A stretch of DNA of 63,994 bases, counting the filler, from Streblomastix strix (Eukaryota), in NCBI GenBank assembly GCA_008636045.1. It is 3 parts of 3 records of this genome, joined end to end, with 100 filler letters (N's around TTAATTAATTAA, not from the genome) between each part and the next. Parts side by side here need not be neighbours in the genome. Positions count along the whole stretch, not along the records: positions 43,239 to 63,994 come from SNRW01000415.1; 2 more parts are not named here. One strand, 5' to 3'. Both the position numbers and the translations under genes were made by a program. Shown here piece after piece: positions 11,601-58,469 of the stretch (the first letter of the stretch is position 1; each line of letters starts with the position of its first letter). The notes beneath the pieces were generated by a model. The model saw only the letters and a list, made by a program, of their open reading frames with translations. It made no database searches and was not told the origin of the DNA.

Positions 11601-12769
11601 AATAATTATCAAGAATTAATATTCAATTAATGAAAGAAAGAGAATCTGATTAATCAATGATTGATATTTACACTAAAGTTATTGAAAAGAATTTAATAGA
11701 TTTATTAAATATAATCAATAAATTAAAATTAAATAATAATGAAGCGATTAATAATTAAATGAATAAAGAAGAAATAGAAAGTGAATTAAAATAATCAGCA
11801 AAATTAATTAGAGTAATTTCTTAAATTAGAGAGAAAAATCCGAAATATGATTGGATAGGAAGAATTCCAGAATTGATTATAAAGATTCTTAAATAAAAAG
11901 TATCTCCTATGATTCATCTAAATTGTCCTGAATACATAAATTGTAATAAACTCATCATCATTCAAGCATCTCCTGCTTTATAAGAATTAAAAGAAGCTAT
12001 ATTCTAAGCTCTTGTTGAAGTTTATAACAATAATTCTGAATTCGTGGGCATGTTAATTTAAGATAATAACTTCCTTCCTCATCTCGCACAATTCATAATT
12101 TCATATTCAACATAATTTCAACTTGAGTAGAAAACAAACATTAATTAATAATAGCATTAATAATAATCAGAATATTCTTCTTCTCCAACTTTTATTTCTT
12201 CTTCTCTTTAAATCCTTTATGATAAAATCAGGAATAATTATATATAAAATTCCAAATAAATAATATAAATTCCAAACTTTCTTCGTTCACTCACTATACT
12301 TATTAATTATAAGTGCAACATACACATCAACAATGAATAAGATTAATAATCATAACAAATTAGAAAATGGAGCAGATAATGTCTTAATTAGATTCAGTCA
12401 TATGGTGATGAATAAGATTAATCTGAACTAACTAATGTTGGATATGGAAGAGCGCTAATTATATATATTAGTACTGCAGGTGGGACAGAAGAGTAAAGAG
12501 ATTGGGAGATCTTTAATGGATTAAATAACATCTCCAGATTCATCTGTTAACTTCGTAATGGGAGAAATAATGATAATGATAATAATTAACCATCCTTCCC
12601 AACATAACCAGCTCTTTCTAAAAGATGCATCGAATAAATAGAAGAAGAAGGAGGAAATGAAGAAATTGAATCATAATTAATAAATAAATGGAATGAAAAA
12701 GATTATTATAATAATATCAAATATTAAGCGTATTAGGCCATAATAAAAATAACGAAAATATAAATTTGA
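8625..12769 (+). CDS. Hypothetical protein: small N-terminal exons, PAM2-like motif, Q/N-rich region, C-terminal helical domain of a lineage-expanded family (paralog of 55992-58469)
   Basis: ATG 8625; KLNSKAKPFIP at 10481-10513; last exon DAPKYQLDQLHQIMKDIHSIIES...GDEQDQSELTNVGYGRAL...IEEEGGNEEIESQL; TGA 12767-12769. Confidence 0.75.
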
Positions 12770-33200: not shown

Positions 33201-36200
33201 CTTCCAAAGGAACAGATAATATCTCATTCTACTGTTACAACTAAGATTAAGTTGATGATTATTGAAATGGATCGATTTCTTTATTTTCTTTGTCATTGGT
33301 TTTATTTTTCTCTTTTTCTTTTTCATTCTCTTTAATTTTTAATTTTATTAATTCATTCTATTTTTTTTCATTAAGCACAAAATTTGGAATGAACCAGGGC
33401 TATTCTACGATTACTGATATAAGAGACATTTGATTAGCAAAATATGTTCTAATTCAAAGAAAAAAGATGAATGAAAATATTAATTATTAATAAAAAAATG
33501 AAAATTAAATATCTATAAAAAATTAATTTGTTGCTTTAATTCAAATTATATCAAACTTATATTTATCTATTGCGTGCCAAATACAATAAGTAGCAGCTAG
33601 CTACTTTTTCTATCTAACTTCCTCTTATTACAAATATGTTTACTGTTACATTTATTTTGATACAGCGACTTCATCCACTGCTTTGACAATTGACTGACAT
33701 GCAACAGAAAATAAAGAACGAAATAAATATGAGATTAATAAAAAAAATAAAATAATTATAATATTAATATTAATAATTATAATATATTAATATATTCTAT
33801 GTATTTACATCCTATTATTCAGGAACAGGAGGAATGGGAGCCATTCCTTTACTTTTATATGGAGAATATTATTTGTTTTGTATTAAAGGTTAAGGTGGCT
33901 CAAGAATAGGAGAACCTTATGAAGATTGTGAATACCTTCTTTAATAATCATATCTTGGTGACGATGGATTTGAAAGACTTCGATCGTATTATTCATCAAT
34001 ATCATCATATACTTCATCCTCTTCGTCCTTAGATATGAAATTATCTGGTTTATTGTAGCTTTGATGTTGACCATCTTGTGCTCCAACTCCTTCTTATGAT
34101 GTGAGTTCTAATTAAGACATCAAATGAGTTGATTCAAGAATACGAGCAAATAAATCAGATAATTTATCATCTAATTAGAATTCATAAAGTGATTAAGGAT
34201 AGGAAGAAGATTCTTATTCTGATGTTTACTTGTGTTGTTTATTTCTCTTTTTAATCTCTTTTCCTTCTTTTAACTCATCTTTATTTATTTTCTTCACAAA
34301 TTTCTTCATTTCATACAAACATTCACATAACTCTTATAAAAGGAATATTTGACTGAAGAGCGTTTCTTATTGAACGCTTTAAAGTACTTCACAGATTGAT
34401 TATATTAAATTCTCAAACTTTTCAGAAAGAATATTTGGATCTGGTTAAGTGAGATATAATATATTATATTATTATTTATCCTTTTCTTTAATCTTATTTT
34501 TCTTCCCATCTTTTTCTTTTTCTTTCTCCTTATCTTTCTCATTTTTCTCTTTCTTTTCTTAATCCTGTTATTTTTTCCACAATAAAGATCTAAATTCATA
34601 TGATCTTAAAACCATAACTAATAATAATCTTAATGATTACATCATTTCTTTACCAGAAATCGATTATTTTTATTATTATTATTTTTCTTATTATTGTTTA
34701 ATTTCAATAATAATTAATTATTATATTTATTTAGTTATAATATCCAACAAAGGAACAAATAAATCTTTAAATGGAAATAGAACTGAAGATGTGAGTGATT
34801 GAGAAGATTAATGAATTATGGTTTAATTTATTAAAGATTCGGGTTTTGACATCTCTTTCAATAGTCTTTCAAACATATATATGTATCTTTAATCATTTTT
34901 AATCATTGCTATTATTTTAATAAGCAAATTAAAAGCATTTTCTTCATCATCAATCATTTTTTATTCAACTTAATTAAAATTATCTTTTAATTATTTTCCT
35001 TCTTTTCCTTCTTTCTATTCATTTTTCTTTATAGGTGCAGGATTGGTTTGTTTATTTTGATCTTAAACTTATTTAATATATCTCGCTGTTAATACAAAAA
35101 CAATTGTTTATAATATAGGACCAAGTGAAGGAGCAATTATATTAATTGGATTGTATAACAACTTTGACCAGAATTAGGTTGAATTAAATTTTTTGAATTA
35201 AATTAATGCTTATTAGATTTATTGTGATGATACAATTGTTGAAACTAGTCGAGTTCAAACCTAAAAAAATTAAATAATAAATAATAAAAGTGAAAAATAT
35301 ATGGAAAACTTGAAAAAAAAACTATATGAATATAAAAATAAAAATTAATCAATAATAATAAATACTTTTATTATTGATGATTTCTTTTAATCGGGATCTT
35401 TTTTTAAGTATTCCCTTTAATCTAAAATAGATTCTTTTTATCCTTCTTCCCATCTATTATTATATCAATATAAATATAATAATAATATTGATAAATGAGT
35501 TATAAATATAAATATAATAGAAATGTTGATAAATGAGTTAATAATCTTATTTCTGATTAAGTTAATATGCTCAAAATGTTTAATACCTGAAGATCGTCAA
35601 TTCATGTTCTCCATCTTTGATATAGAAAGCTAATTATTAATAATAAAATTATGAATAAATAAGAATGGTTAAAATAATTAATAAATAATAAAATTAATTA
35701 ATTTTTATACCTTTATTTACAATGTTTTTTTCTTTATCTTTATTCATTTCATTAGAAGCTTATTATTAAGATTAAGAAGATTAATTATAATTAATACCAA
35801 ATTCTTAAAATGGTTCATCTGACCATAATGGAAGATGTCCATATCCCATTAATATGTCATCCTGAATAAATTTAATTAATATAAAATAAAATAAATATTT
35901 ATTCACATATATTCACACTATATTTTTCAATATTTAATTTACATACTTTCTTCTTCTTTGTAGTTCTATGGTACACTTTGAATAAAAGATGAGCTTTTAA
36001 AAGTTCTTCAGGAGGAAGTTAAACAGTGAATGTTTCATTCCAATGAGGAGATTTGTTGTGATAGAAGATAAAAGATTAATAAACACTATTATTGAATCCT
36101 TAAAATTAGTCACTAGAATTCGGAAGTGTGAAAATGTCTACTTCTTTTGTATCTTAATTGATCTTATCTTTATTGTCATTACTATCTATGCTATCTTTTA

Positions 36201-37705
36201 AACTAGTGTTTTATATTGGAGATTCTTATAAATTAACAGATTTCAGTTTCATCTCTCGTTCATACTTCATTTATGATAAAGTCTGAGCTTAAGTTGCCCA
36301 TAATGGTTTTGCATTATTTGTTTCAGAAACTATTTAATTACCTTTTCCAATACAAATAACAGGTCTATCATTTGTAGAGTATATAACAGGACCATCAGAA
36401 CTAACAACAGACACCTCTATGCAGAGATTTGGATCTGAAGATTTACTTCCTTTATCAAACTAACCATAATTAAGAGTCACATATAAATCATTTCTTTATA
36501 ATAATGGATTGAATGGTGAATCTTCTAATGATAATTTATTTATTATTATAGCCTGATTTTGTTAAATTGCTTAATATTACTCTTACTGATTTTATTTCTA
36601 TGAATCTAATTAACTATCTATCAGTTCAAATTACTAATCCTGGGATTATTATACACTCTAGCTCTTAATCAGTTATGTTTTGGAAGATACTGTCATTCGT
36701 TACTTCTATGTTAATTGTGCTTAAGTTGATGATGTGTAAGGTTGAGATAAATTATCATCATTGTTATTCATTTTTAAAATATTATTTGGTATTTGGAGAA
36801 TTCTCTTTGTTAATTCACCAGATTAAATCCAAATTGAAAAATTTATTCCTGTTATAATTTTTAATTATTCAAAGTTTTTCTTTTCTATTTTTTATTAGAG
36901 ATATGCAAAATCATCATCTTTCTGAATTAAATAAATCTTTTAATCTTAAAATTAAATTCTTTCTTGTCCATTTTACTCATACAAATACCTCAGTGGATGA
37001 TCATTATAATTTGTATTAGGATATTCCTTCTCTTTATATTCTTATTTATAATCCAATATTAGCTTCCCAAGTAACACTTAACCTCCTCCAAAGGCCACAC
37101 GACAATCTTTTCTTACTTATCCATCACCTGTCTTCTTCTCTTCTTCTGTATTCAATGATCCAACACTGACTATCCGATAATATAATGATATCTGCCTCTC
37201 AAAATCACTAACTGCTAAATCTTTAAATATTGCTAATATTTAATCTTTAATTGGATTTGATCCTTCTCTCATTGGACCAACATTTATTCTAAATTCTTCG
37301 GTTATTTATTTTTCATTCTAATACAACGAAAAGAAAATATCTAGTATGTTGTCAGTCTAAAATAAATAAAAAATAAAGGAATTGATTAGTTAATATTAAT
37401 AAGAATGTAAAGTAGATATATAAGTAATAAAGTTGAAATAATAATACCTATATTTAAACTTGATCAATTAGAAGGCATAATTGAATGAGCTTATCTGAAT
37501 TTGAAATGTTTTTATTGACTTGAAACAGAAGTTCTTTAGATTACCTCAAATAAATCTGGTGTGGAAAGGGTTTAATATATTCATTATATTGTTTTTTAGT
37601 TGAAGATTCATAAGAATTATTTTCTATTTCTTCATCAAGACGAATCATGCGGTATGCAGCAAATGATTCTGCAATGCTGTCATTCTCCACTTATTCCTTC
37701 GCCAT
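27215..37705 (-). CDS. DOCK-family Rho/Rac guanine nucleotide exchange factor (DHR-1 C2 plus DHR-2), multi-exon
   Basis: RNDLYVTLNYGQFDKG; HNKSPHWNETFTVQLPPEELLKAHLLFKVYH (DHR-1); FYVQFLGKGF and FIYK; YWITHTFVRVEEPLPTICRRV...NPPIQNII (DHR-2). Confidence 0.85.
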
Positions 37706-39892: not shown

Positions 39893-41169
39893 ATGATTAC
39901 TGCAATTCTTTTCCTCAACGAGAAGGGCGAGATCGTGCTGGTTCGAAACTACCGTGGAGACATTCGGTATGATCTACTGCTGCTTTGCGTTATATTTTTA
40001 AGAGTTTTTCGTTTTATTTATTACAATTTTATTAAACTTATCTCAGTCGTTCAACTGCAGAGGCATTCCGCAATGCAATTATCGTTAAAAAAGAGACAAA
40101 GTAACCTATTGTCCAAATTCAAAAATCTACATTTTTCTATATTCGCGAAAACAACATTTATGTTGTAGCCTGTGCAAACGGGAATGTCAATGCAACTGTA
40201 ATATTTGAGTCATTATACAAACTTGTAGCTGCCTTCAAGGCGTATTTTGGTGGAGTTTTTGATGAAGACGCAATCCAAAAACAATATGGACTGATATACG
40301 AACTAATGGATGGTTAGGATCAAATTGAATCTTTATTATTTATTCTAATCTACTTAATTACATTCTTTCTGTTTAATCACAGAGGCATTTGACTTTGGAT
40401 ACCCATAGAACATTGATCCAGATGTACTCAAAGCATATATCATGTAAGGAAAACCGCTAAGTGTTCAAAAAGTGTTAATTTTTATTATTTAATTTTTATT
40501 ACCAATTTTTTCATATTTTATATTTTCAGGCGTAATAAGTATCAATGCATGTAACTGGAGCTTCATCTCGTCCACCAAATATTGTTCATCAAGTAAATTA
40601 GTTGTTCATTGATGTGATAGAATAAGTATTTATTATAATACAATAATTAAGAAGTTATTTCATTAAATCTATTTCTTTTTTGATATATAAAAACAATTAA
40701 GGTTAATCTTTTAGTTTCATCAAAGCAAACTATTCTTAATGCAGAAGTTATTGGGCAGATAAATCTTAAAGTTCAATTATCAGGTCTGTATTTAATATAA
40801 TTCATATTTATTTTTATATTTATTTTTTCAATGTTTTATATTCAGGTGATCCCGATTGTATATTTGGCTTCAATGATAAACTCTTCCTTGATCAGCACAA
40901 TGACTCATAAGGACATGTTAAGCGCAAGAGTTTGAATAAGAAATAAATTTATTTTTAGTTCAAATTTTTCTTTTTTATATTAAATTTTATTTCAATTAAA
41001 ATTCTTTATTACTTTTATTTTTATACAGCCAATCGTGATACATTAGAACTTGATGATATTAAATTCCATTAATGTGTGAAATTGAGTCATTTCAGTAAAG
41101 ATAGAACTATCTCTTTTATTCCTCCTGATGGAGATTTCACCTTGATGAGGTAATCTAATAAATATAATG

Positions 41170-41209
<40 letters not shown>

Positions 41210-42279
41210 CATTTTATATTGTATTTATAATTATTTATAATAGATATCGTGTATCTGAACGTGTAGTGAAGCCTCCATTCCACGTTGTTCCAATTATCAT
41301 TGAACACTCTCGAACAAGATTTGTTGTGCAGGTTTATATTAATTCATATTTTATTATAATTCTTATTCAAAAGTTTAAAAGAATAAACATAAGTAATATT
41401 TAATTTTATGCAATCTGTTTGTTTCTTAATATTCAGGTCACAGTCACATCAACATTCTCAGCTCACTTTATTGCAACATCTGTTGTTATCAAAGTATAAA
41501 ATATTACATCAACTATTAATTATTTTGTTCTTTATAATTTAATTTGTATAAAAATAGATACCAATTCCAACTAACTCTGCACGTCTTTAGAGTGAAGTTT
41601 GTATTATTATTTATTAGCAATTCATTTATTTATTATATTTATTATATTTTCAGGTGAGTGTTGGATCAACCAAATATGAACCAACCCAACACGCAATTGT
41701 TTGGAAGGTTAAGAACTTCCCAGGTAATATAATATATTATTACCAGAATGAGAATAAGAATGATAATATATACATCATTATATTATATTATAATATATAT
41801 CTATTATCTTGTTAATATTAATTAGGAGGGTCATCCAATCAATTCAGAGCCAATGTTCAGCTTCTTGCTTCAGTAGTTTAAGGAGCTCCCTGGTCTAAAC
41901 CTCCAGTATCAATGCAATTCTTGGTATTAAAGAATAGGAATTAAATTATTATTATTAATTGATTAATATTTTCATTATATATCATAATACAGGTTCCAAT
42001 GGCTACATCATCAGGACTTGAGGTTCTATTCATGAATGTGAGTGAATCAAAGTATTATCTTTTTACTTATACAATATTCAATCATCAATATTTACTATAT
42101 ATAGACTCCATTATCATGCAGATAGATTCATACGCTATGTAACAAGGGGAGGTAACTACTTAATTAGATATCCAGATAAAGTAGGAGTTGGGGAAGATAG
42201 AAGAACAGGAACTGGTGGATAAGTTGGATATGGAGGACAGGCAGCTGGTCAGTTTGGAATTGCAGCTCCAAAGAAATGA
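39893..42279 (+). CDS. AP2M1: AP-2 complex mu subunit
   Basis: MITAILFLNEKGEIVLVRNYRGDI, LIYELMDEAFDFGYPQN, LFIDVIEQVN, LDDIKFHQCV, ISFIPPDGDFTLMRYR, WSKPPVSMQF, FIRYVTRGGNYLIR. Confidence 0.92.
41172..41205. repeat. (AT)n microsatellite in an AP2M1 intron
   Basis: Direct observation. Confidence 0.95.
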
Positions 42280-43238: not shown

Positions 43239-43239
43239 T

Positions 43240-43554
43240 TATATGAAGGTAGATGATAAGGAAAAAATAAAATTAAAAGGTGTTAATCAAAATACTAATA
43301 AAATTACTAAAGACTAAATAGTTGATAATATAACCAATGGAACGATTACAAAATGCACAAATATGCGGTTAGGTTAAAAGAATTACCAAATGAGCAAATT
43401 AGCTACAGAAAAAAATGGAATTACGGGAATACACACAAAAATGGTGGTACTAAGTGATTAATCATGTTGTCCTTACATTTATGGTTTGAAAGCAAGTGAT
43501 TATACGGTCTCTGAGCATTAGCGTGAAACCATTTTTGATAAAAAAGTTTAATGA
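43240..43554 (+). CDS. C-terminal fragment of a protein-primed family B DNA polymerase
   Basis: YMKVDDKEKIKLKGVNQ...KNGITGIHTKMVVLSDQSCCPYIYGL; KxKGV motif and a terminal PY/F pattern typical of pPolB ends; viral context. Confidence 0.65.
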
Positions 43555-43570
43555 GCCAAAAATAATAAAT

Positions 43571-44242
43571 TCAATTCTTGGATATGATTATTTTTATGAC
43601 CATGGAACCATCAGGTTATTTATCTATATCGCACAAAATGCCTTTATGTTAATTTTAATCAATTTCTGGCCCTTTTACCCATTGCAAATTCTCCAATCTA
43701 TCATCTAAATAATTTTTATTTATGTGTTCAACAATAGATAAATTTTAAGGATTAGGTAAAAAATGTGTTGCTATTATTTTATCCAAGAAATACACCTAAC
43801 CATCTAATTTAATTTTGTGAAAACCATCTACTATGTCAATTATTTTAATATCTTTACTGTCTATTATTTTTATATGATATGGATATATAGTTTCTATCGT
43901 ATAATTCGGATGGTCTCGTAAGATATCACACAAAATGCCTTTATGTTAATTTTAATCAATTTCTGACTCTTTTACCCATTGCAAATTCTCTAGTCTATCA
44001 TCTAAATTATTTTTATTTATGTGTTCAACAATAGATAAATTTTAAGGATTAGGTAAAAAATGCGTTGCTATTAATTTATCCAAGAAATACACCTAACCAT
44101 CTAATTAAATTTTGTGAAAACCATCTTCTATACCAATTCTTTGAATATCTTTACTGTCTATTTTTTTTATATGATATGGATATTATGTTTCTATCGTATA
44201 ATTCGTATGGTCTCGTAAGATATGCGGATTATCAAATCCCAT
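43571..44242 (-). CDS. Protein made of two tandem HNH-endonuclease-like domains (223 aa)
   Basis: Twice IATHFLPNPQNLSIVEHINKN(N/Y)LDDRLENLQWV, matching the HNH_3/NUMOD-type pattern AxxFIPNPxNLPxVDHINxxxxDNRxxNLxW; 297-bp in-frame duplication. Confidence 0.8.
43627..44223. repeat. 297-bp tandem duplication (99 codons)
   Basis: Copies begin at 43627 and 43924 and are similar throughout. Confidence 0.95.
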
Positions 44243-44270
44243 TTTATAAGCTAATAAAAAAATAAAAAAT

Positions 44271-44639
44271 TCATACCGATTATTTTTATGGCTAATTTAA
44301 TAGTTTAAGATATAAAATATATCTCCAATGAGTTGCCAGTTCCATATCTTTTTATTAAATTGCATCATTCAAAAATTGTTCGATTTGTTATACGGTTAGC
44401 TAAGACCAATTTATTTACGGTTCATTCTTGCTCATTTTTCTTTTATAAAAAAATTATATAACATAAACCGTTATATTTAGTGGTACCAGCACTATATCAA
44501 AATATCCCCATAACTTCTTAATTAAATTAACGGTATCGGTCAGCTGCTCAGGAATAGATACAGACAAAACAGATATAATAAAATTAACACCATAAAATAT
44601 ATAATTCATTAGACTCATAAACAAATTCAATAAGTTCAT
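44271..44639 (-). CDS. Viral hypothetical protein with hydrophobic N-terminus (or two small ORFs, the second starting at 44435)
   Basis: MNLLNLFMSLMNYIFYGVNFIISVL...VIQFFYKRKMSKNEPQINWSQLTVQQIEQFL...QSV-TGA. Confidence 0.55.
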
Positions 44640-44657
44640 TTTATTATTTTTAAAAAC

Positions 44658-45674
44658 ATGACACTGCAAGAGATATAGGGCATAACATTTTCAAACTAGG
44701 ATTTACTAAACGAATATAAAACACGACCACTAACCAAAAACTCCTTATTCCTCGTTAATGGAAACCATTATATTGTTGGAGCTGTTGGTTCAGGTAAAAC
44801 AACATTAATGTCCAAGCTAATAGTTATATACTAAAAAGTAATCAATCCATACATATTATACTTTTCAAATTTTGGTGCTGACGAGACAATGGCATTAAAT
44901 CTTAATAGTAAAAACATATCACTAACCAATATAACATATGGGGAAGCAATGTTGTTTTTACCAGAATTTGATGAAATAAAATATTCAACAAAAGAAGTAT
45001 ATACTTGGTATAAATTGCATGAGTAAGGTTTTAAATATACCAGTGATTTTATAAAAAGAGTCGAAGAAAAAATAATATAATAAAATGAAGCTAAAACTAA
45101 TGAAAAGTCAGAAGTTTATTTAAAACGAATAGCTGATTTGTTCAAATAATATGTTATAGAAACCATAAATAAATATAGCTAGCCATTTAAAATATTACAG
45201 TTTGATATTCCAGCACTTATATAAAATATTAGCTATGAAAAGAAAATGAAAGTAATAGATGATAAACAAACAGCTGATATAAAAATAATGAAAATACCAG
45301 TACTTTTTAAGGCATAATTGTTAAATACACTAATGCTTTTTGATGATATTGGAAGTAATGCCGATATCCAACGTTTTAATTCTTCACTTGCTAAATCAAT
45401 TACTCATTTGGTTAGTGATTCAAGGCATTCGAAAAATACGATATTTTTTATAGCTTAACGTCCAAGTTATTTGTTTAAGACTGCAAGGATATTATCCCAT
45501 GTAATAGCTATAGGGGTTAATCTTGGAGAGAGTGATTTCAAACAAGTATATGAAGAAAACACGATATAAAACCTTGATTTTGAAGAGTTTTTACTGCTAT
45601 ATTCCACATTATAAAAATATGAATTTATTATTTTAAATAAGCTTTTCAGCAAGTATGAAATATTAAGAAATTGA
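44658..45674 (+). CDS. A32-like (FtsK/HerA) genome-packaging ATPase, 338 aa
   Basis: Walker A IVGAVGSGKTT, Walker B LMLFDD, SRHSKNTIFFIAQ (RH...Q motif, Gln = TAA at 45456), KTAR; intronless. Confidence 0.92.
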
Positions 45675-45693
45675 TAGTTTTGTAGGTAAATAA

Positions 45694-46086
45694 ATGACTT
45701 CGTGCTAAGGCTCTCCGAAATCACCGTGTGATCCTTCAGCAATTCCTGATGGAATGGATTAATTGTATTAATTAGCCACAAACATTGGCCTATAATATAA
45801 TGCTACGGACTATGAAATTTTCAAAATATTTGAAGCATTAAAAGACGGAGGCTTACGACTTCCTACGGAAAGCCCCCATTGCGGACAAACTGGAGTAGAA
45901 AATAATGATATGAATGAACAAGAAAAATAAATATATCAATAGTTTAAAAGCCACTTTTTTTAACAAAAAATGCCGCAAAGCGACTATTGTTTTTAAGAAT
46001 CTTTGCAGGATAAAACTGTGTAAATATTAGAATATATTTAATACCTCAATTTATTGATGCGGTTAAATTCATCAAATAATAATTGA
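45694..46086 (+). CDS. Viral hypothetical protein; 3' end uncertain
   Basis: TAAATG start; MTSCQGSPKSPCDPSAIPDGMDQLYQLATNIG...; open to TGA 46084, overlapping the convergent ORF by about 40 nt. Confidence 0.55.
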
Positions 46087-46522
46087 CCAATCCACTATTT
46101 TATGTATCATTAACAAAGTCATTATATATTTATTTTTCCTGCTCATTAGCTTCAGATATAATGTACTTTTTTATTTGTTATGGCTAGTTATTTTAATCTA
46201 GTTGTTTTTTAATACAATTATATTTATTTTTGAAATATTTTTCTTACTCGTTGAACAGTTTATTTTTATAATCTTCTGCATCAACATACTGCTTTATTTG
46301 TTGTAATTTGTTTTACTAATTCATGAACAACTTATTTATTCTGGTTAGTTCTTAGAGTAATGGGTGCAGTATTATTTCTTTATCTTTTATTAATAATTTT
46401 TGCAGTGCGTCAATTGTTGCCTTTATTGAATCATCACTTTCAAAATTTTATTTAATTACTTCATTAAACAATTATTTTATAGGGTTTTTATTATCAATTG
46501 CTATAGGTGTTGGTGAGGACAT
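46046..46522 (-). CDS. Viral hypothetical helical protein (158 aa)
   Basis: TAAATG start; MSSPTPIAIDNKNPIKQLFNEVIKQNF...; no TGA until 46048. Confidence 0.65.
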
Positions 46523-46597
46523 TTATTTAAAAATAAATAACAATTTATAACAAAATAGTCCAATAATTAATGACTGCATTAGCATGAATGAAATGAA

Positions 46598-48649
46598 TCA
46601 TGGAGGTACTGACACCAAAGTAATAGGTTTAGCACGCTAATATACTTTTGCCCCATCGCTATAAAATCCCCCTTCTGTGCCTATACTATTTACACCCCAT
46701 AAAATAGGATTCCCTGCTGAATAATTAACTGACCCAGCCGCAGGCGGAGTCTATGACATTGTTGCTCCATTTGTTGCACCAGTGCCAGCTATAACTGACC
46801 CATTAAATGTTAAAGTATTTCCATCAGCGGATATTTATAAACCTTTACCAGATGTATTTTAGCCAGCTGTACGCACTATATTTAGCGTTCCGTCACCCTT
46901 TTTATATATTGACCATTATTTATCTATGTATCCAGAAGTAGTATTTGGATCACAACCTAATGATATTAGGCATAAATTATTTGTTGTATTAGCAATTCGT
47001 AAACTTTCACTATAATTTCCAGTTTAAGGATTAATTTAAAATGGAGATTAAAACATATTCGCGAATAATTAAAACCTAGTTGTGTAATCAGTAGGTAATG
47101 CATCAACCATATCACTATTTAATACATTTGATATCAAATCTGGAAATGTATTTTATCTCGATAGTTGTATATCAACACTATTACTCCACGCGTTCATATT
47201 ACACCATAACTCTCCATAGCCTGTAGTTCCTGACCCATAATATAAAATATAAGCTCTTTTTAAAAATGTGTTAGATTCAAAATGATAAGAGTATTGACCA
47301 ATTCCATTAGTGATATAATTTTAATTGAATTGTATTAATCCAAACGCATACCTGCAATTAATGTAAAATTCAACGGAAACATTATTTGATTAATTATATG
47401 GAATAAATTAACATAATTTAATATATTTTTCTGTAGTTGATACATAATAATTATTTTTAGCTAAAGCTACTTTTTTAGTTGTCCCATCAGCTAGTAGTAT
47501 TTCATTATTTGTGCCATTTGTCTTCTTAATTGTATCAAATGTTTTTATATCAGTAATGGTTTAATCAGATGCTATATCTACTACTCCGTTTATTGCATCA
47601 CCATTAGCGCAAAGTATTTCCGTAGCCAATCCTCCAGTCTTAATAAATTTGGTCGCGGTAATGTTTCCATCATATGTTAATTACTATGGATGGACATGGT
47701 CATTTCTACTATAAAAATCACTCATACCATTAGCCGCAGCAGTAGCATTTACTAACGGAACATTTGCAGTTGTTGGATCAACATTTAATGGGTGCTAATG
47801 TGTGGCACTGGCATATATATTAGCAGTGCCTGCTGTTCCTGTTCCCGTATCTTTTAGTGGTACGTCATTACTTAGATTTACATGATGCGTATGGTCAGAC
47901 CTGACATAAGTGGTAGCAACTCCTGCCTCACCATTTGCAGTATCTTTTGCAGGTAAAACAGTTGAAACTTACAAAGGATGTTAATGGTCTCCTCTTGCAT
48001 ATTCATTACTAGTTCCTGCATTACCATTTACAATAGAGTTTGATGGTATTGCATCACTGGCAGGGGTTACCTAATCAGGGACCACATCTCCACTCTTATA
48101 CCAATCAGCCGCAGGTGGGGATCCTGTCATATCATACATCCATACTGTTCCACTTTCTGTACTAAATGCAAAATCACCACTTGCTGAATTAGGCAAATTT
48201 TATATGACACTATTCAACAAATAATATCCACGGAAATGTATTTATCTCGCTAGTTCTTACTAAATAGTTAACACATCATTTTTTAATCCATCAATATCTT
48301 ACTCTACCCCTCCAATTGATGACTATAACTAGTTTACTTCATTAATTAACTAGTTAATTTATGCAACAAAATCAAAGTTTATTACCTTTAAATTCTTTAT
48401 TGTAAGAAGCCCATTTGGTGCTATTTTGAGTGCATAATCAGCAGCATAACCATCAACTATTTAGTTATTAGCTGCATAAACTAGTGCATTGTCATTATCT
48501 ATAAACAGTTAGTATTCATCATTTTGCAACATGCCACCGCTAGAGCTTCCCCTTTTCTAATACTGTATATAATACGCTATATCATTAGTGATAAGCTGGC
48601 GAACTGTTCGGATTTGTTGCTGTGTTAATGGATTATTTTAGGTAATCAT
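46598..48649 (-). CDS. Tail-fibre-like virion protein (683 aa) with coiled coil and HxH repeats
   Basis: YARGDHQHP, YVRSDHTHH, YASATHQHP, YSRNDHVHP; GGLATEILCANG, QTITDIKTF, GTNNEILLADG. Confidence 0.8.
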
Positions 48650-48700
48650 TTTAATTTTGCAAAAATAAAAAGTTTTACATGCAATTATTGGATATGGTTA

Positions 48701-48907
48701 TCACCGTTTATTTACGAGTCGATCTACGGCTCCTGCAAGATTAGCCCCAGCACCTAGTGCTCCACCAATTCCTGGGTGTATCATTCCTACAGGGCCTGAT
48801 ATTGTTGATAGTACCTTATGAAGAGTTGGTGCTACCCATTAAGCTGCATGCTTAATACCTCCCAAAATTTTACTTCCGATGTTTGCTATACCACTGAAAA
48901 ATCTCAT
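48701..48907 (-). CDS. Small Gly/Ala-rich amphipathic protein (68 aa), candidate membrane-penetration or core protein
   Basis: MRFFSGIANIGSKILGGIKHAAQWVAPTLHKVLSTISGPVGMIHPGIGGALGAGANLAGAVDRLVNKR; divergent from the MCP gene. Confidence 0.75.
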
Positions 48908-48931
48908 TTATTTATTTTTAAAAATATTAAA

Positions 48932-50924
48932 ATGTCGTTCTCAGCATCTGACTACCTTTAAAGACTATCCAAAATGCAACACTCCGACTACATTAGTGGA
49001 TACATGCAACTTGGTGAGGTGTTAAAAACACTATCAATTCATGCCTAATCCTTCGCAATTTCTAAGCAATAATTTTTTGACTGACCAGTAAATTAGCTTA
49101 CATCATCAGGTGTTAGATATACACGTGCGCCGTTGGCTGCTAGAGGTACAGCAACTTGTTCAATGGTATAAACCTGCTAAGTAAATTGGACTATAACAAT
49201 CCCAGCAAATATATTAGCTGTATAACTAAATAGATGTGAAGATTCAGGAGGTGACGAAGACGAATTAAGAGCAAGGGTTAATTTTAATGCAAATAATGAC
49301 CTTGCAGAAGACCCCAAGATTATGACATAATTCTACAAAAAATATTATGGTAAAACTGGTGATGGTGAAGAAAAAAGTGAACATCTGAAGTTTTGGCTTG
49401 GTTTCTCCACTGCTTGCGAACCCTTTAATTAGTTTGCAATATTACGAGATGCTTAAAACTTATAGAATACAGCAATATATGCGAGAGAGTAAGCAGTTAT
49501 TTGTTCAAATTCATTAACAGATTTATGCACCAATAATTCCGTCAGTGTCTCACCACTCGAGTCCATCATTGCTGGCAAACGTCATTGTGGTATTTTTATG
49601 GATATTCCACTTAGTGATATAGATTTATAAGCTACAGTAGCAGATGGATAACCAAGAACACCATATTATTTTAGAATACCATATGATATAAAATTTAGCG
49701 GTGTATTAGATTTGAACTAATTAAATCCAATTTTTAACTCATTCCCAGTACTGACAAGAAACTATGCATCATTATACTTATAGCTATGGGTGTAGGATTT
49801 CCTTTAAGATTTAAAAAATTGTGTGGCTAAATAAATCAGATGTTATGTAAAATAATCATCTTGCATATGCAATGATTCCACCAGAGAAGCCAGACGTCGT
49901 TTATCTATTAAGTAAAGAAGAGGATGAGGACCCACAGGCATATTCATTGTATAATGTTAGGCTCGTTAATATGTAAAATGTTGCGAATAACGCAAAAGTA
50001 CCATAAAATTCCATTAGTCAAATATCAGATTCTAAATTCGAAGAGCAAGAAATATAAAATGTATGTTTTAATATAGAAAATGAAGAGGCAATTATTCAGA
50101 TGATATAAGCCTAAAGAATAATAAATTTCCCCACACAAATCATAAGGTCCTAATCTTCAAATTTTCCCTTCAGTGGTTTTTAGGCTGTTTCTGGTAGTAT
50201 GTAAAGTATAATGTCATTTGCTAATATAAAGGCACTATTCATGACATTTGCCATGCCACAATATCCTACTTGGTTTTTCCCTGTATTATTTTATAACTTT
50301 AATTTAGTTGTTGATTAAAAGAATTTAATACCATAACCATATAAAGCACTGACCCAAACAACTAATAGCTAAATGTTTGATTGTTTTGTTGATTAGGATG
50401 TTGTAAGTGCTCCATCAGACCTATACCATTCACTTACTTTTGAAAATGTAAATGTTGATGATAAAAACAATTTTTATGGATATGTTGACCCTGCAGGTGA
50501 TGTAGGAACTACTGCTAATATATTTTATAATACAACATTATACAATGGAAGCAAAGCCACAAAAACATTATACCCAAATAAGTTTATGCTGGCATGGAAA
50601 ATGGCAACTGATGACTCATTTATGAGAGGTTAAAACTCTTCAAAAATTGGTGCTAGGACAAATATTTAAGTGATTTTAAACGGAAATTTGACTAAAGGAA
50701 TTGTAGATACTACAAAATTATATCCATCATAGAATTAAAACGATTTTAAGCAATTTATTGGTATGCGTAGCTATCTGGATCCTCACCAGGTAGCACTGAC
50801 ACCTATCATGCACTATTTATGTGATGCATTTATTCGCATAACTTTTGATGTTAACCCAGACCCATAAGTATTAAGCATGGATGTTATTGGAGAAATAGGC
50901 GGTTCATCAATTAGAAGCGGATGA
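48932..50924 (+). pseudogene. Probable double-jelly-roll major capsid protein (about 660 aa) with one in-frame TGA and one +1 frameshift
   Basis: Long intronless beta-rich ORF near the ATPase and fibres; VLDLNQLNPIFNSFPVLTRNYASLYLQLW; TGA at 49082; extra A in the run near 49813-49818; span 1993 nt = 3n+1. MCP identity rests on size, context and composition. Confidence 0.65.
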
Positions 50925-50984
50925 GGTGATTAATGGGCTAAAAATAAAATTGGTTTATCATTATTTTTGTTTATTATTCCTTTC

Positions 50985-51036
50985 GGCCTGCTTTGCAGCC
51001 CTTACTTTTTTAACAAAAATGCCGCCTCTGGCGACT
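50985..51036. terminator. Bidirectional hairpin plus T-tract element between convergent viral genes
   Basis: Plus: GGC(C)TGC-TTT-GCAGCC then CTTACTTTTTT; minus: GTCGCC-AGA-GGCGGC then ATTTTTGTT directly after a TGA; related copies at 45955-45985 and 54220-54246. Confidence 0.5.
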
Positions 51037-51176
51037 CATCCATGTATTGAATTCCTAACCTCTTCGCTAATTTCTTCGCTATCCATTTTTATTTAAGCTA
51101 TCACCAATATACAACCAAGCAAATTATTACAAGCTATAACTATTAATGATATACTAGTTATTATTTCCCAAATCAT
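51036..51176 (-). CDS. Small viral single-pass membrane protein (46 aa)
   Basis: TAAATG start; MIWEIITSISLIVIACNNLLGCILVIAQIKMDSEEISEEVRNSIHG. Confidence 0.55.
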
Positions 51177-51201
51177 TTATATAAAAATAAAATTAAATTT
51201 T

Positions 51202-51327
51202 TCACCGGCAAATTTTCGATTCGCAAGCATATTTGATTGCTGCATCCCAAATAGCCTTAAAGATTGCATGCCAATTTATATTTAATTATTCAAGCGAATA
51301 TATTACTGTTTCATTAAATCCGTCCAT
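51202..51327 (-). CDS. Small viral ORF (41 aa)
   Basis: TAAATG start; MDGFNETVIYSLEQLNINWHAIFKAIWDAAIKYACESKICR. Confidence 0.5.
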
Positions 51328-51345
51328 TTATTTATTTTTAAAATG

Positions 51346-52251
51346 TCAACCTGATTAATTATAAACAGCATATGAATCACATACTTATACACAAAAATCA
51401 TTTGGCAAATTAATTTGGCACTACGTATTTATTACAACATTACCGTTAGGATTAATATAACAATCCATAGCAATTGCACCGGTCCAATCTATTGGATAGC
51501 CATATACTTTTTACGCAAATAAAACAGCATTAAGGGGTATGTTATGTGTTGTGCCAGAAAATTTTGGTTTTATGTCGTTATTGAAGATAGAAAATAATGT
51601 ATATCCCCCGTAGCATGATGTGCTTGGATCTGAATGAGTTATTTACAGAGATATATATGCACGTTCTTTTTAAGATTTTACGGTACCCCAAATTAATTAT
51701 TCATACCTACCATAAGCAATAGACCAATAAATTGCATATTCGATAGGGACAGGAGGAAGAGGTGATACAATTTAATTGTTAAATTTAAGTGTTGAACATT
51801 CGAAATCGATAATTATACCCTTATAATCATATGCTTAATCTTCTTATTTTTATATCCTAAATTACGATGAAGTTGAACCCATTTTCCATACCCCGTCCGT
51901 ATCTGTGGGATCAACGTTGCAACCAGTGAGCACAAAGCTATCCCAATTCGCTTTATTTTTCATTATCCTTATGCCTTAATTACGTATGTCATCATTTGGT
52001 TCTATAGTCAATTAACCCATCGCGTGAGGAAAATATTTAGGCAAAAAATTCCCTGTGTCTGTAGTATCACCATTAGCGAGTAAAATTTCATTGCTTGTAC
52101 CTTTATTTTTAATGAATTTTTATGCAACAATAGGCTATAAAAAAGTCTTTACTCCGTCTATTATTTGACTAGTTCGTAAATTTACGTAATCAATTGAATT
52201 TCTGAAAAATTGACTTAAATAGTTAAAGTATTTAATAATTTCGTTATCCAT
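51346..52251 (-). CDS. Second fibre-like protein (301 aa; in-frame upstream ATG at 52392)
   Basis: YVNLRTSQIIDGVKTF, FIKNKGTSNEILLANG shared with the first fibre; beta-rich C-terminal head-like region. Confidence 0.75.
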
Positions 52252-52416
52252 TATTTATAAAAGAGTATTTTTTTATCTAGTTTAATTTTGTTATTCTTCT
52301 TGTATTTTTTATAATCGTTTTTATTCTTCCTACTAGTTTTTCAAATCATCATCGTCTAACAGCGATAAATCGCTAATTGGTTAATCAATCATTTTATTAT
52401 CCAAAAATAAATCATA

Positions 52417-53082
52417 TCATTCGTTTTACATAATAATCAATACAAAATAATTTTCAAAAATCATTTTCTGTTATTTCCATCTCTGGTGCTTCGCTTGAAC
52501 GGATGAAATCGCAATTTACTCGATAAAGTTTTTCAATAGAGTTATATATAGCACATTATCCAACACTTTTACAGACACATTTTTTATTAAAATATCTTAT
52601 ACTCTAATAAGGTCCTTTTTCTTGAATTTCTTTGATATGCAAGTGTGTGGTTATATAATTGCTTCCTCAAGCACTATTTCAACATCATTTTCATCATTCT
52701 GCGTGATCAGTGCCCAAAATTTTATAAAATTATCAGATGAAAAAACAAAATCATCTCCGCGTTATCTGTGGGTAATGGTGCGCCAGCACGTATCAATTAC
52801 AAACTTTTATACTATGAGATTAGGATGTGATAGGTATATACTTTTTGGTTATTCTTCTGCTAACTATTAAAATGCCTCTTCCGGTAATACTTATGCGGTT
52901 GTTCTATCAACCTCTTTATACTTATTTATGTTATATTTTTTATGTGGTATGTTTTCATTCTAATTTTATTGTGCTGTTTCTTAGTCTGTTGGCATTGTTT
53001 TTATACGATTAATTGCTTCATCGATTAGTTAGAGTCTAATTTTATCCTCATCTGTAAGCTCTTTTTTCTTGATATCCGACAT
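52417..53082 (-). CDS. Viral hypothetical protein (221 aa)
   Basis: TAAATG start; MSDIKKKELTDEDKIRLQLIDEAINRIK...; open to TGA. Confidence 0.65.
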
Positions 53083-53160
53083 TTATTTTTTACTCTTCGA
53101 CATTCTTACTTGATTTCTTTCAATACCCTTAATCATTTTATTAATTTTTAAAATATTAAA

Positions 53161-53826
53161 ATGGAATTATCGCATGCTCTTAAGAATTTGATAGAAAATG
53201 GAACAAATATTGAATACTTTGATAAAGATTATGTGGTATAGATTAATAAATAAATAAAGGTATATGAAGACGGCAAAAAACAACTGCGAAAATTGACACA
53301 AACATAATAAAATAAGCTATTGCTATAAGCTCGTGGAGGGGGATAAATAAATAAAAAACCATCAAAATAAATAGTTTAAAAATAAGCTGTGGATGAAGAA
53401 GAAGATTTTATAAATTATGAATAATAGGAGGAAAGACACCGAGATATACAGGATGATATAAATGAAAGCGATGATGAAACAATTAGCCAAAGCGAAAGAC
53501 CCGAAAGGCCAATAAAACATTTCCGTGAGGCTAAACAACCACATAAAAAAGTTATAAAAGCATCAAAATAGCCATAAATCAATTATACAAATCAATAGCT
53601 TAATTTGGAAGAATTAATACGTTTAAGAACTGAAAATAATTTTATAAAGTAATAGCATTAAGACGCTATAAAATAAATAGAGAAATACAAGCAAAAAGTA
53701 AAACGTTATAAACAACCAAAATAAGACATTGAAAAATAGGAAGAATAACAAGATTTATAACAAGAGCCTATATAATAAAATTATTAGCCTGAATAAAAAT
53801 TTAGCGAATATGATTTATATAATTGA
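53161..53826 (+). CDS. Viral hypothetical acidic/coiled-coil protein (221 aa)
   Basis: MELSHALKNLIENGTNIEYFDKDYVVQ...; upstream TTTTAAAATATTAAAATG as at the MCP gene. Confidence 0.7.
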
Positions 53827-53854
53827 AAGAATTATTTTTTTACTAATTATAAAA

Positions 53855-54142
53855 ATGAATATTAATATTATCGATATAGACGAATAGGGTAAAATATGTG
53901 CTATTGGTAATATTCCATGGAATAATCTACATAAATTTTAGTTATCAAATAATTAACTACTTTTAACAATGAACCAAATAAATGATTACTAAGAAAAAAT
54001 AAAAACAATTAACGGCGATGAACTTTTTAATTATATTAGTGAAATGCGGGTGCTTAGTGAAAAGTAAAATAAATTACGTAATGAATATGTAAAACAAGAA
54101 AAATAACGCTATCGTTAAAAGCTAAAAGAAATGGATGATTGA
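53855..54142 (+). CDS. Viral hypothetical protein (95 aa)
   Basis: MNINIIDIDEQGKICAIGNIPWNNLHKF...KEMDD-TGA. Confidence 0.6.
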
Positions 54143-54428
54143 CTTTTTGGCACATTGGCGGCTCGACTGGCTTTTTTTATGACAATTTTTTACCCGGAAC
54201 ACTCGGAACACCTGGAACGGTCCACGGCTATGGCATTTTTTGTTAAATCTCCATGCTAAAATTATTATATAAATTATGTGTATCCATTATTTGTTGTTAT
54301 ATATTGTTATAAATTGATGTGGTGGCTTATTGGAGATATTTTTTTAAAAAGCATTTTTTAACCGTTATTTATTTATTTTAATTATTTTATATAAGGGGTT
54401 TATATTCATTATTTATTTTGCACATTAA

Positions 54429-54677
54429 AGTAGTATATGATGGTTATTTATGCAATAACTTCAAAAGGTATTAGAATTTATAAAAAACCACGCAAGTTCT
54501 TTTTTTTAAGTTGATGGTCTAACAAATGCAATAATATTTTCGAACAAAGGCGTTAGCCAGCTGTGAGAAAATTTTATAAATTTGAAGGCCAAAAATCTTA
54601 AAAAATGAAGGAGTGGAGATTTTTTATAAAACTGAACACTTTTGAAGTTGGGGCATAAATCACCATCATATACTACT
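54429..54677. repeat. 249-bp imperfect palindrome with AGTAGT...ACTACT ends
   Basis: Outer 39 nt of the two arms match at 35 positions; similarity continues inward to a GGC-GTTA-GCC centre at 54549-54558. Confidence 0.9.
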
Positions 54678-55991
54678 GACATAGCCAACTCATGTTGTTC
54701 ATATTTTATTCTTATATTGTTTTAATTATTTGTTATAATTTTACATTTACAAAATTTTATTTTTCATTCATTTTTAACTTAATTTATTTTTACAATTTTT
54801 TTTTCGTTGAAAATCATGTGTCCTAAGTTATGGAAACTTAAATATATTGTTTTAATAAATTATCTAATATATATAGATTTACTCACACAATTTTTTATTG
54901 ATGATCAATTTTTCATTGTAAACAAAACTACAAGGTATATAAATTCAAAAACTATAAAAATCGTTTACGATTTACGAAAAATCGAACTGGTTGTAGTTAT
55001 AATGTGGTAGTATCAATTAAATTTTCTAAAGATTGCATAATATAAGACAAAATTTTTGTTGTATTTCACAGAAATGACCTCAATTCTTTTGAGAGCCAAG
55101 AAATAAAGGAGACGAAATTTACTGTGATTGTGAGCATATCATAAAAAATTGCTCTAGTAATTCTACTTTAAAGAGTAATTTCCATATTTCAGACACAAAT
55201 TTAAATCTTGTACTACTTCCTATTCATTTGATCTGCACTCGAAAACTCCTAATTATTCCACACCGCTATCTTTTATTTAAATTATTTATTTTATTATGTA
55301 TTTTGATGTTTCTTCCAATATTTTGTACAAATATATTTATAATTTCCTACATTATTACTGTTTTAGTTGGACAAAAATATGCGAGATTTAAATGCTTCAT
55401 TTCTCATAATCGACATTATTTAGATCATTTCCAATTGTTCATAATTAAATAATAGTTTATTGTTCACAATTTATTAATATAAATTTTTTTGATCATATCT
55501 TTTCAAAGATGTTATGCTTCTGGGAATTCATTTCATTTTTCCTACATATTTTTTTTATCCTTTGATTTTTTTAATTATTTTGTTTTTTAATTCTTAATTT
55601 AGAACATCCGTCTTATGCATTTATCAATTATAAAACTATCATGTCCAAGTCAGCAACTGCCGTATACTTGTTTATAATTGCCAGAAATAGGTTACAACTG
55701 CTGCACGCTGGTTTGCAACAGTCACAGACTTGTACATACTGGATACTGATTGATGGCTGAAAAGCATTTATTATCTATTAATTTGTATATCAAATACTTA
55801 ATTTTATGACTTCTAAGCTTCGCTCCTCAATTTATTACTCAATTTTCATATTTCTTTCCAAATAATATTTGATATTATTTATCTATAATTTTAAAACTAT
55901 CAAAATATTACATTTCTTTTCATATTCAACTTATTTTTATTATTAATTTATTTATTTAATATCTTAATCCTCGCGTTTGCTCAGTTTATCA

Positions 55992-58469
55992 ATGTCAACC
56001 ACTGAATAGTAATTTGAAGTTATTTCTGATTATGCTGGAGTTAAAGGAGATACAAATTATATTGCTGTTATGAAAGGAGATGTGGTTCGATTGATAAAGA
56101 AGGATAAAGAATGATTCACAGTTAATAAGGATGAACGTATTGGAAAAGTACCTAAAAGAATATTAATTTAAAAGTAGAACTAAATTTCTTAGATTCTGAT
56201 GAATTTTCCAATATAAACAACATAAATTGTTCCAAAAGCAAAATAATAAATGAAGACAAATAACAACAGTAAATCGAAATCCCCAATAAAAGTATAATAA
56301 ACTTCTAATTAAAAATAATCTAATAATCTTAATTCATTAACTTATTCTCTCATAACATCAAATAAATAAAAGCCAAAAATCTTTCCTCCACATCCAAAAG
56401 CACAAATCAAACTTCAATCTGACAATTAAATATAAACAGTATACGAAATCAAGTCGCAGTCTGAATCTAATATTACAAAATAAGAGATAAAACAATAAGG
56501 TAATTAATTTAATATTTAATCTGTTTCTCCATTAGACAATTAATAATCATAAATCAAATCTGTCATTCAAATAGATAAATAATAATCATAAATAACTCCA
56601 CTTCACTCTAATGCACAAATCAAACTACAATCTGACAATTAAATATAAACAGTATACGAAATCAAATCGCAATCTGAATCTGATACTACAAAATTAGAGA
56701 TAAAACAATAAGGTAATCATTTTAATATTTAATGATGTAATAATTATTATTCTAATAAATAAATAAATAAATGTTTATTATTATTTATATTTTCATTAAA
56801 ATTGTATTTTTTTGATATTTTACTATAATTAAATTACTAAATTAAATTCCTTTCATTCGTATTCAAATTTATATCTTTTATTTTCATCAAATATTTTGCA
56901 GCTTCAAAATATTAATTAGATCAATTGCATTAAATAATTAAAGATATTCAATCCATTATTGAATCAAAGACAATTAATGATGAAGAGAACGAAATGAAAA
57001 TTAAAGAAATATATACTAAATTGAAAAAGAATGATGAAGATGAATTAAAAAAGATATTTAATAATGATGCATTCTAATTAATTCTAATTAACATTAATGA
57101 TTGCATCTCTGGAATAGAGAAGATATTGTTAGATATAATAGAATTAGTTGCAGTAAATGGAGTATAGATGCATGATGATGATGGTTATTATGAAGATCCT
57201 ATCTTCGAAGATATTCAGACATCTGGACTCTTAACTAAGATTAAATAGATAATATAATATAAAACTGAGAAAGAAAAGGAATAAGAGAAATATTCAGTTG
57301 AAACGGAACAATTAATAAGGATTTGTATTCAGATAATGAAAGGAAGATAAATTGAATAATAAATGATAGATATTTCTGTTAAAATAATTGAAAAGAATTT
57401 AATTAATTTATTAAATATAATTAATAGCATAAAAGAAGATAATAATAAAGTTATTAGTGATGAATAAAACAATGAAGATACAGAAAGAGAAATAAAATAA
57501 TCAGAATAATTAATAAAAGTAATTTCATTGATTGGAGAGGAAAATCTGAGAAGTTAGATGAATAAAGTAAGAATTCCAGATCAGATCATGAAGATTGTGA
57601 AAGAAAGAATATGCCCACTTTTTCATTTAAATTGTCCATCTAATATCAATTGCTAATAATGCATCAAAATTCCACAATCTCCTGCTTTAATAGATTTGAA
57701 AACTGCTGTATTCTAAACTCTTTCTGATGTATCATTGAATAATTGGTTATTCACTAACATGTTAGTGAGTGACCATAACATCATCCCCCATCTTTCTCCA
57801 TTCATAATATCATTTGCATCCTAATTTCAACTTGATAAGAAAATAAACTCATAATAATATCATAATTAATTATAAGAATAATTCACTTCTCTTTCACTTA
57901 TATCATCTTCTCTAAATATCCTTAAAAGTCTAATTAATAATAATAATAAAAGTAAAGAAGTTACTAAGATATCTAACAATCTCTATTCACTTTCCATACT
58001 TACAATCTACAAGATCAATATTCACATCAATTAAGAATATGATCTATAAACATTATCTATCAGAAGCAGAAGTAGAAATTGTCTGTGGGTTATTCAAATG
58101 TATAGTGATGCATCTGCCCAATCTGAACTTGTGGACGTTGGATATGCTAGAGTGTTTACCGTTGCAATTAGTGCATCAGGTGGCCATGGTGAATAATAAG
58201 ATCAGGAGATCTTTAGAGGATTGCATTCAATCTTCTTCTTCCTCAATTATCTTCAAGGTGCTTATTCAATGCCACTTCAACCTCTTCTTGTACGAAGATC
58301 AGTTGAACAAATTGAAGAAGAAGGAGCAATTGAAGAAATTGATGCATAATTAATAAATGATGGACATTACAATTGTAATATCAAGGAATAAACAAACAAT
58401 GTCAAAAGAATGATTTTGAACTACTTTATTAATAAAAGTAATCGAAGACCATTTTAATTTAACCGTTGA
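55992..58469 (+). CDS. SH3-domain protein with internal repeat and the same C-terminal family domain as 8625-12769; in-frame TGA in the SH3 (possible pseudogene)
   Basis: FEVISDYAGVKGDTNYIAVMKGDVVRLIKKDKE*FTVNKDERIGKVP; intron 56713-56901; ASKYQLDQLHQIIKDIQSIIES... Confidence 0.75.

Follow-up and report, generated by a model that had tools for sequence, protein, structure and literature searches.

Why does the genome of the oxymonad Streblomastix strix, a termite-gut protist, carry two genes that look like bacteriophage fibres on either side of a gene that looks like a viral capsid gene? The locus lies in a window of 63,994 nucleotides from assembly GCA_008636045.1, which consists of three contigs joined by N spacers. 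The region analysed is the third part of this window (positions 43239–63994, 20,756 bp). An initial annotation of the window had described the two genes as modular, phage-style fibres with exchangeable heads. We consider it likely that these genes, which flank the capsid-type gene of an S. strix element, encode trimeric fibres of a Polinton-like virus, and that the longer one carries a shaft captured from a gut Bacteroidales phage.

Modular anatomy of the fibre-like genes

Read with genetic code table 11, the region has no open reading frame (ORF) longer than 145 amino acids (aa). The long frames open under table 6, in which TAA and TAG encode glutamine. The best database match of the resulting 683-residue protein is the S. 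strix model EZS28_003193, which has the same letters except for two predicted introns and a fused upstream ORF. In the models EZS28_003193 and EZS28_003194, stretches of open frame are removed as introns (32 and 22 residues for the long fibre) and neighbouring ORFs are joined; such viral genes are thus probably mis-annotated genome-wide.

The long protein contains the parts that had been named from its sequence. A helix that scores against coiled coils is predicted at residues 92–138. The four HxH motifs start at residues 222, 253, 284 and 318 (three DHxH, one THxH) and are regularly spaced (31, 31 and 34 residues). Four such motifs were found in none of 20,000 shuffles. The QTIxxxKTF module is present as QTITDIKTF at residue 363, and two EILxAxG modules lie at residues 344 and 383. 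The short protein shares these two modules, as QII-DGVKTF and EILLANG. It also carries a third common module of about 85 residues, which had been missed: residues 127–208 match residues 534–620 of the long fibre (E 2.9e-8 in a comparison set of 716 sequences). The length of 301 aa first given to the short protein is probably too low. Three homologues start with the same acidic N-terminal stretch, so that 348 aa is likelier.

The capsid-type gene was correctly located in that a frame of about 650 codons lies between the two fibre-like genes, but this frame is broken. It aligns in two frames to intact homologues of about 650 aa, and related contigs in four runs read through both the TGA and the frameshift. 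The lesions thus belong to this copy or to its assembly. A capsid cannot be made from this copy as assembled, so the open fibre genes would be recent leftovers or be used in trans. The motifs of the gene resemble, by eye, those of the S. strix capsid matched to Sputnik by Bellas et al. (PMC10120064).

Homologues are numerous (339 for the long fibre, 111 for the short fibre and 258 for the capsid-type gene), and all named rows among the matches listed are from S. strix; for the long fibre these are the best 120 of the 339. Locus tags of long-fibre and capsid-type homologues lie within three of each other in 10 pairs, the pair of the window included, against 2.0 expected and a maximum of 8 in 300 random draws.

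Phage relatives and predicted folds

A profile of 46 S. strix copies of the long fibre was searched against 1.84 billion representative proteins (E ≤ 0.001). It gave 2,776 matches, of which the best 150 were listed and 20 were looked up: six from S. strix, three from Bacteroides or Tannerellaceae by name, and 11 without a name. In 10 of the 14 non-Streblomastix matches, a unit made of coiled coil, HFRGY domain and HxH motif is repeated. Pairwise E values between these relatives and the long fibre of the window reach 2e-25. A profile of the relatives led to ten genome loci (six Bacteroides, one Tannerellaceae and three Clostridia contigs from metagenome-assembled genomes) and to four viral contigs.

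Scans with PHROG covered 37 ORFs from six of these 14 loci, and in four of them (L003, L007, L013 and L015) homologues of the module sit in blocks of phage virion genes. The module gene stands among genes for head protease, portal, holin, amidase and tape measure in L003 and L007, and downstream of tape measure, baseplate hub and collar fibre genes in L013. Three of the 13 phage-module proteins scanned end in the Pfam phage tail tip domain PF24243, above cut-off. Over 110 residues, the module of 20 S. strix representatives is 44–54% identical to the best outside match, and the window copy is 51% identical to L013. The phage link proposed in the initial annotation is thus upheld for the shaft module, whose relatives are prophage proteins of gut Bacteroidales and Clostridia.

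Other parts of the protein differ in this respect. The tandem HxH part matches three further unnamed proteins (best E 7.6e-22 in the 716-sequence set). The KFIK-GG linker matches proteins of the phage contigs L001 and L002, which were also the only loci found by word-pattern scans with S. strix sequences. The N-terminal domain, cassette, shared beta module, tip and head have no match among the 714 non-Streblomastix sequences of the set. In the ESM Atlas, the phage module gave only leads below 0.9, to the phage fibre repeat PF22337 (0.86) and the head fibre PF11133 (0.83). One of the unnamed proteins, P0362 (1,699 aa), has no Pfam match and carries such HxH repeats in a very long array. In L002 (67–1530 and 4647–6770), six KFIK-GG repeats occur in a protein of a phage-like block, and a reverse transcriptase (phrog_1423, E 5e-87) is encoded close to it; this may be a diversity-generating retroelement.

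Two unrooted trees of the module were calculated from 110 columns. The first was made without 68 of the 88 full S. strix modules (clustered at 85%), and the second without a further 12 S. strix rows and 15 other rows. The S. strix modules form one clade in both (support 100/98 and 99). Because the trees are unrooted, the direction of transfer is deduced only from this single S. strix clade set against the wider spread among phages.

The predicted fold of the short fibre also points to viral attachment proteins. In a VIA search, its last 130 residues match the bIL170 head (2fsd) with a Z of 7.9 and a root-mean-square deviation (rmsd) of 3.1, 108 of 110 residues being aligned. Other matches are reovirus sigmaC and sigma1 (Z 7.0–7.5), adenovirus heads (up to 7.2), the Dettilon tailspike (6.7) and Zamilon Zav_19 (6.2). 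All of the top 16 rows are viral, and 15 are titled fibre, attachment protein or tailspike. Since each Z is middling when taken alone, the case for a fibre head rests on these 16 rows being viral throughout. The head is modelled with a predicted local distance difference test score (pLDDT) of about 45–79. Together with the modular anatomy, this fold bears out the fibre-like character first suggested for the genes.

For the long fibre, the VIA search gave a match of residues 378–533 to the C-terminal part of WceF, a tailspike-like protein (Z 10.8, 128 residues aligned at an rmsd of 3.4), and one of the cassette to the tail fibre of Pa193 (Z 7.5). Most rows of this search are taken up by the coiled coil, and the N-terminal, HFRGY, HxH and tip regions are barely covered. 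Against BFVD, the long model has 134 matches at E ≤ 0.001, and the named top rows are mostly phage tail fibres.

Module exchange and competing explanations

All of the 120 long-fibre proteins compared have the HxH segment, and 97 have one to three copies of the shared module. The cassette was found in 56 and the tip in 55, counts that are lowered by incomplete gene models. A usable junction was available in 96 of the 120. Three shaft types (50, 32 and 12 members) pair with the main downstream types, and identity in the shaft is uncorrelated with identity downstream (Mantel r 0.026, p 0.11). Among the 587 pairs that are at least 85% alike upstream, 461 are less than 30% alike downstream; the window copy and P0011, for example, are 91% alike upstream and 4% downstream. 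The 26 downstream clusters overstate the number of true types, since some of them are offset or distant forms of a single cassette. Heads of the short fibre vary more than its shaft (mean column identity 0.70 versus 0.88), and two head segments cross-assort (52 of 60 rows).

The alignments thus agree with the early proposal in that modules shuffle among copies, but not in what is exchanged. In the long fibre it is the middle cassette that varies independently of the HxH shaft, with the C-terminal tip kept. The short fibre has one head fold throughout, a homologous domain whose segments form mosaics. False introns and chimeric contigs may exaggerate the pattern. Given the kept tip and this single homologous head, we reject an exchange of heads as the way in which the copies vary.

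How would such fibres work? We infer every step from sequence to function. Element-specific N-terminal domains would anchor the fibres to the capsid. Three chains would wind into a coiled coil and a needle, in which the HxH pairs would hold axial metal, as in the precedent of T4 gp37. The long-fibre cassette and the short-fibre head may bind surface glycans or proteins, and recombination among hundreds of genomic copies would reshuffle these binding parts on a fixed shaft. An amphipathic peptide of 68 aa may help the particle to cross a membrane.

Several results weigh against this account. Neither fibre protein has a match, phage fibre families included, in Pfam, PHROG, NCBIfam, the PDB sequences or 50,697 cultured phages, by sequence or profile search. 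A sequence link to T4 gp12 and gp37, the fibres that had been named for their HxH pairs, was not found either: neither the protein nor the 46-sequence profile matches them in PDB or PHROG, and we reject membership of the T4 fibre family. The putative head- or tail-fibre role of the phage gene is itself read from its context, and the sister of the S. strix clade shifts between the unrooted trees (L011, then L013). The monomer models have a mean pLDDT of 59 (long) and 53 (short), with values below 50 in the HxH region of the long fibre; such mediocre scores would be expected of intertwined fibres and equally of poor models. Foldseek against the PDB gave nothing at E ≤ 0.001 for either model, the Z of 7.9 falls in a range that the structure-search tool grades as common, and the BFVD matches have TM-scores below 0.2 over the query. 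The shuffling analysis relied on automatic gene models that contain false introns and come from a fragmented assembly, conditions that can produce spurious mosaics. The evidence for the capsid label is the automatic UniRef name 'Major capsid protein' in 12 of 120 listed homologues and the likeness of motifs by eye. The profile of this gene has no match in PDB, Pfam or NCBIfam, and none of six locus tags of its family was found among the supplement rows examined (PMC10120064). Pairing of short-fibre and capsid tags is not above random (four pairs, random maximum seven).

The likeness of the shaft could instead have arisen earlier or by an indirect route, by way of other eukaryotic viruses or a wide common pool, and not by capture from a Bacteroidales phage. 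Such a history, which we hold to be unlikely, would fit the presence of the module in Clostridia phages and of HxH repeats in unnamed proteins, the listing of only the best 150 of the 2,776 profile matches, and unrooted trees of 110 columns with an unstable sister. An identity of about 50% is, however, high for an old split. The S. strix copies come from one genome and fall into a single clade, while those of phages are spread over several phage types, and the named homologues are mostly Bacteroidales (7 of the 10 genome loci). It is also conceivable, if doubtful, that the fibres dock on the Bacteroidales ectosymbionts coating the host and that the virus enters by riding on them; S. strix reportedly engulfs its symbionts. 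An equally doubtful extension is that the fibre was taken from a phage of the host's own symbionts, in which case more than 100 reshuffled genomic copies would track a changing Bacteroidales coat, with entry on carried bacteria. The shaft modules do trace to Bacteroidales prophages, S. strix bears filamentous Bacteroidales ectosymbionts in deep furrows (PMC2717939), and the virophage DSLV2, whose tails bind Synechococcus lipopolysaccharide (PMC12724248), provides a precedent. But the phage sequence relatives are limited to structural shaft modules, the cassette, beta module, tip and head being unmatched among the 714 non-Streblomastix sequences, and the head fold is found in eukaryotic viruses too.

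Two further explanations concern the assembly. Module swapping would be an artefact if it arose from amplification chimeras, collapsed repeats or false introns; the database model of the long fibre has two false-looking introns and a fused upstream ORF, and most contigs are short. We consider this improbable, because the position of the break is constant, a few cassette types (34, 12, 8 and 7 members) are found again with each of the three shaft types, and the short-fibre head segments cross-assort too. Cover by related contigs is also thinner at the cassette in three runs (X1, X2 and X4) but not in the fourth (X3), which is a weak sign as depth is not copy number. It is hardly credible that a bacterial prophage or a contaminant was mis-binned with the protist here. 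The shaft is phage-like and the assembly is of metagenome type (PMC10120064), but TAA and TAG are both needed as glutamine and the contig continues into host-type repeated genes. Moreover, a library scan of the window proteins found no portal, terminase or tail genes in the element, which has hundreds of copies in S. strix only. The code, the host-type flank and the S. strix-only copies rule out bacterial contamination, unless the contig is chimeric at about 54.7 kb. Identical pieces of run X1 lie at 54650–54961 and 54957–55608, across this possible chimera point.

The element, its flanks and known systems

Virus fibres with a phage-derived long shaft, the reading that we prefer, would belong to an element that is integrated, multi-copy and uses the host genetic code (Table 1). 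The region is one copy of this likely Polinton-like element. From left to right the order is an HNH ORF, a P-loop ATPase, two small ORFs, the long fibre, a 68-aa ORF, the capsid-type gene, the short fibre and further conserved ORFs. No terminal repeat was seen in the element, whose left end is cut at 43239. The ATPase, a candidate for an A32/FtsK-type packaging enzyme, has weak generic P-loop matches only in library scans. One related contig of run X1 skips 43508–44258, so the HNH ORF may be a mobile insert that is missing from other copies.

Next to the short fibre, homologues of the conserved upstream ORF switch frame near 52531–52582, where related contigs lack 2 bases, and 16 of 110 short-fibre database models take in part of this ORF. 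The 68-aa ORF lies head to head with the capsid-type gene, 24 bp apart, and is fused to the long fibre in database models of relatives. Judged from its sequence, its product is possibly a membrane-lytic peptide. It has no Pfam or NCBIfam match and may resemble the membrane-lytic helix of adenovirus protein VI; a likeness to cupiennin-like genes of adintoviruses can also be drawn (PMC8502044). Outside the element, related host-type genes occur on two different contigs (11182–11795 and 56870–57501; DNA 75–82% identical, no Pfam match), and an SH3-like stretch was noted by eye at 55806–56114.

Table 1. Features of the window; positions count along the whole stretch, and residues are those of the encoded protein.
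Feature	Position	Strand	Remarks
Long fibre-like gene, 683 aa	46598..48649	-	table 6, 33 TAA/TAG codons read as Gln
Long fibre residues 10-90, conserved N-terminal domain	48380..48622	-	no non-Streblomastix match in comparison set; likely capsid anchor
Long fibre residues 112-228, coiled-coil end, HFRGY domain and first HxH	47966..48316	-	44-54% identical to Bacteroidales/Clostridia prophage repeats
Long fibre residues 196-326, four HxH repeats	47672..48064	-	like tandem repeats in non-Streblomastix P0331, P0366, P0362
Long fibre residues 327-395, KFIK-GG / EILxAxG / QTIxxxKTF linkers	47465..47671	-	common to phage proteins in L001, L002
Long fibre residues 396-533, variable beta-sandwich cassette	47051..47464	-	predicted fold like WceF, Pa193 tail fibre C-terminal domains
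Long fibre residues 534-620, beta-rich module	46790..47050	-	1-3 copies in relatives; also in short fibre
Long fibre residues 621-683, conserved C-terminal tip	46601..46789	-	
Capsid-type gene	48932..50924	+	~650-codon frame, broken by TGA 49082-49084 and frameshift near 49815
Short fibre-like gene, 348 aa	51346..52392	-	from first ATG; 301 aa if from second ATG at 52251
Short fibre residues 218-347, predicted fibre-head (receptor-binding-type) domain	51352..51741	-	
Multi-copy element	43239..54740	.	left end cut by contig start, right end approximate; related-contig cover drops near 54.7 kb
HNH endonuclease ORF	43571..44368	-	PF13392, E 5e-10; internal 297-bp tandem duplication, 94% identity
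P-loop ATPase, likely packaging ATPase	44667..45674	+	Walker A GAVGSGKT and Walker B
68-aa amphipathic, glycine-rich ORF	48701..48907	-	conserved upstream of long fibre
Conserved ORF upstream of short fibre	52417..53175	-	apparently frameshifted near 3' end in this copy
DOCK-type C2 domain host gene	35857-37272	-	
Adaptor complex medium subunit host gene	40422-41258	+	
Kinase fragment host gene	17890-19566	+	

Phage-like fibres have been described as widespread in Polinton-like viruses (PMC12220804; bioRxiv 2022.07.28.501842; PMC8502044). The fibres described there (PMC12220804; Gezel-14T Ltf, bioRxiv 2022.07.28.501842) are likewise encoded by modular phage-type genes that lie in the structural block, and the protist viruses concerned are endogenous. 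Gezel-14T Ltf was found in particles (bioRxiv 2022.07.28.501842). The domains named there (peptidase S74 chaperone, laminin G3, collagen, PTR, BppL_N and gp36) were undetected in the S. strix fibres. In contrast to those fibres, the S. strix family lacks a Pfam match and has close phage relatives (about 50%). The tails of the virophage DSLV2 (PMC12724248) are also kin to phages of habitat-sharing bacteria, and transfer from phages was proposed for them. They are, however, encoded by three short gp37-like genes that form a heterotrimer and were assayed for binding, in contrast to the two unlike genes of an endogenous metamonad element considered here.

The regular HxH pairs of the shaft recall the T4 gp37 needle and other HxH fibres (PMC11705849), from which the S. 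strix repeats differ in the absence of a sequence match to gp37 or gp12 and in their length of 31–34 residues. The prophage fibre family (P0240, P0286 and P0371; L003–L016) shares the 44–54% identical module of coiled coil, HFRGY domain and HxH. In the prophage proteins the whole module occurs one to six times, with long coiled coils. The S. strix protein contains it once, together with three additional HxH repeats, and differs in its N-terminus, cassette and tip, which are its own. The heads of bIL170, reovirus sigma1 and sigmaC and adenovirus resemble the last 130 residues of the short fibre in predicted fold and C-terminal position, at 4–11% identity. Because this fold is common to phages and eukaryotic viruses, it names no donor.

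Endogenous DNA viruses of S. strix use the host code, and 820 capsid hits have been tabulated (Bellas et al., PMC10120064). Their MMN capsid group shares host and code with the element of the window, but its example capsid, EZS28_010462, differs from the family of the window. This example lies eight locus tags from EZS28_010470, a member of the capsid family of the window, and S. strix may have two distinct capsid types. The main text of PMC10120064 makes no mention of fiber, fibre or tail. Literature searches, which mostly miss subscription journals, found no paper on the S. strix fibre family or its phage link.

The locus is a well-traced new example of a known viral habit, in which the phage link is unusually close and the shuffled family is large. 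A phage fibre family that lacks annotation comes to light as well, and the database models of these viral genes prove to contain false introns and fusions. A close, traceable phage fibre module is found here in a eukaryotic virus whose host bears a coat of bacteria from the order that includes the phage hosts. The fibres bear on the question of how Polinton-like viruses enter cells, and the combinations of shaft and cassette form a natural series for asking whether the binding parts recognise the protist or its symbionts.

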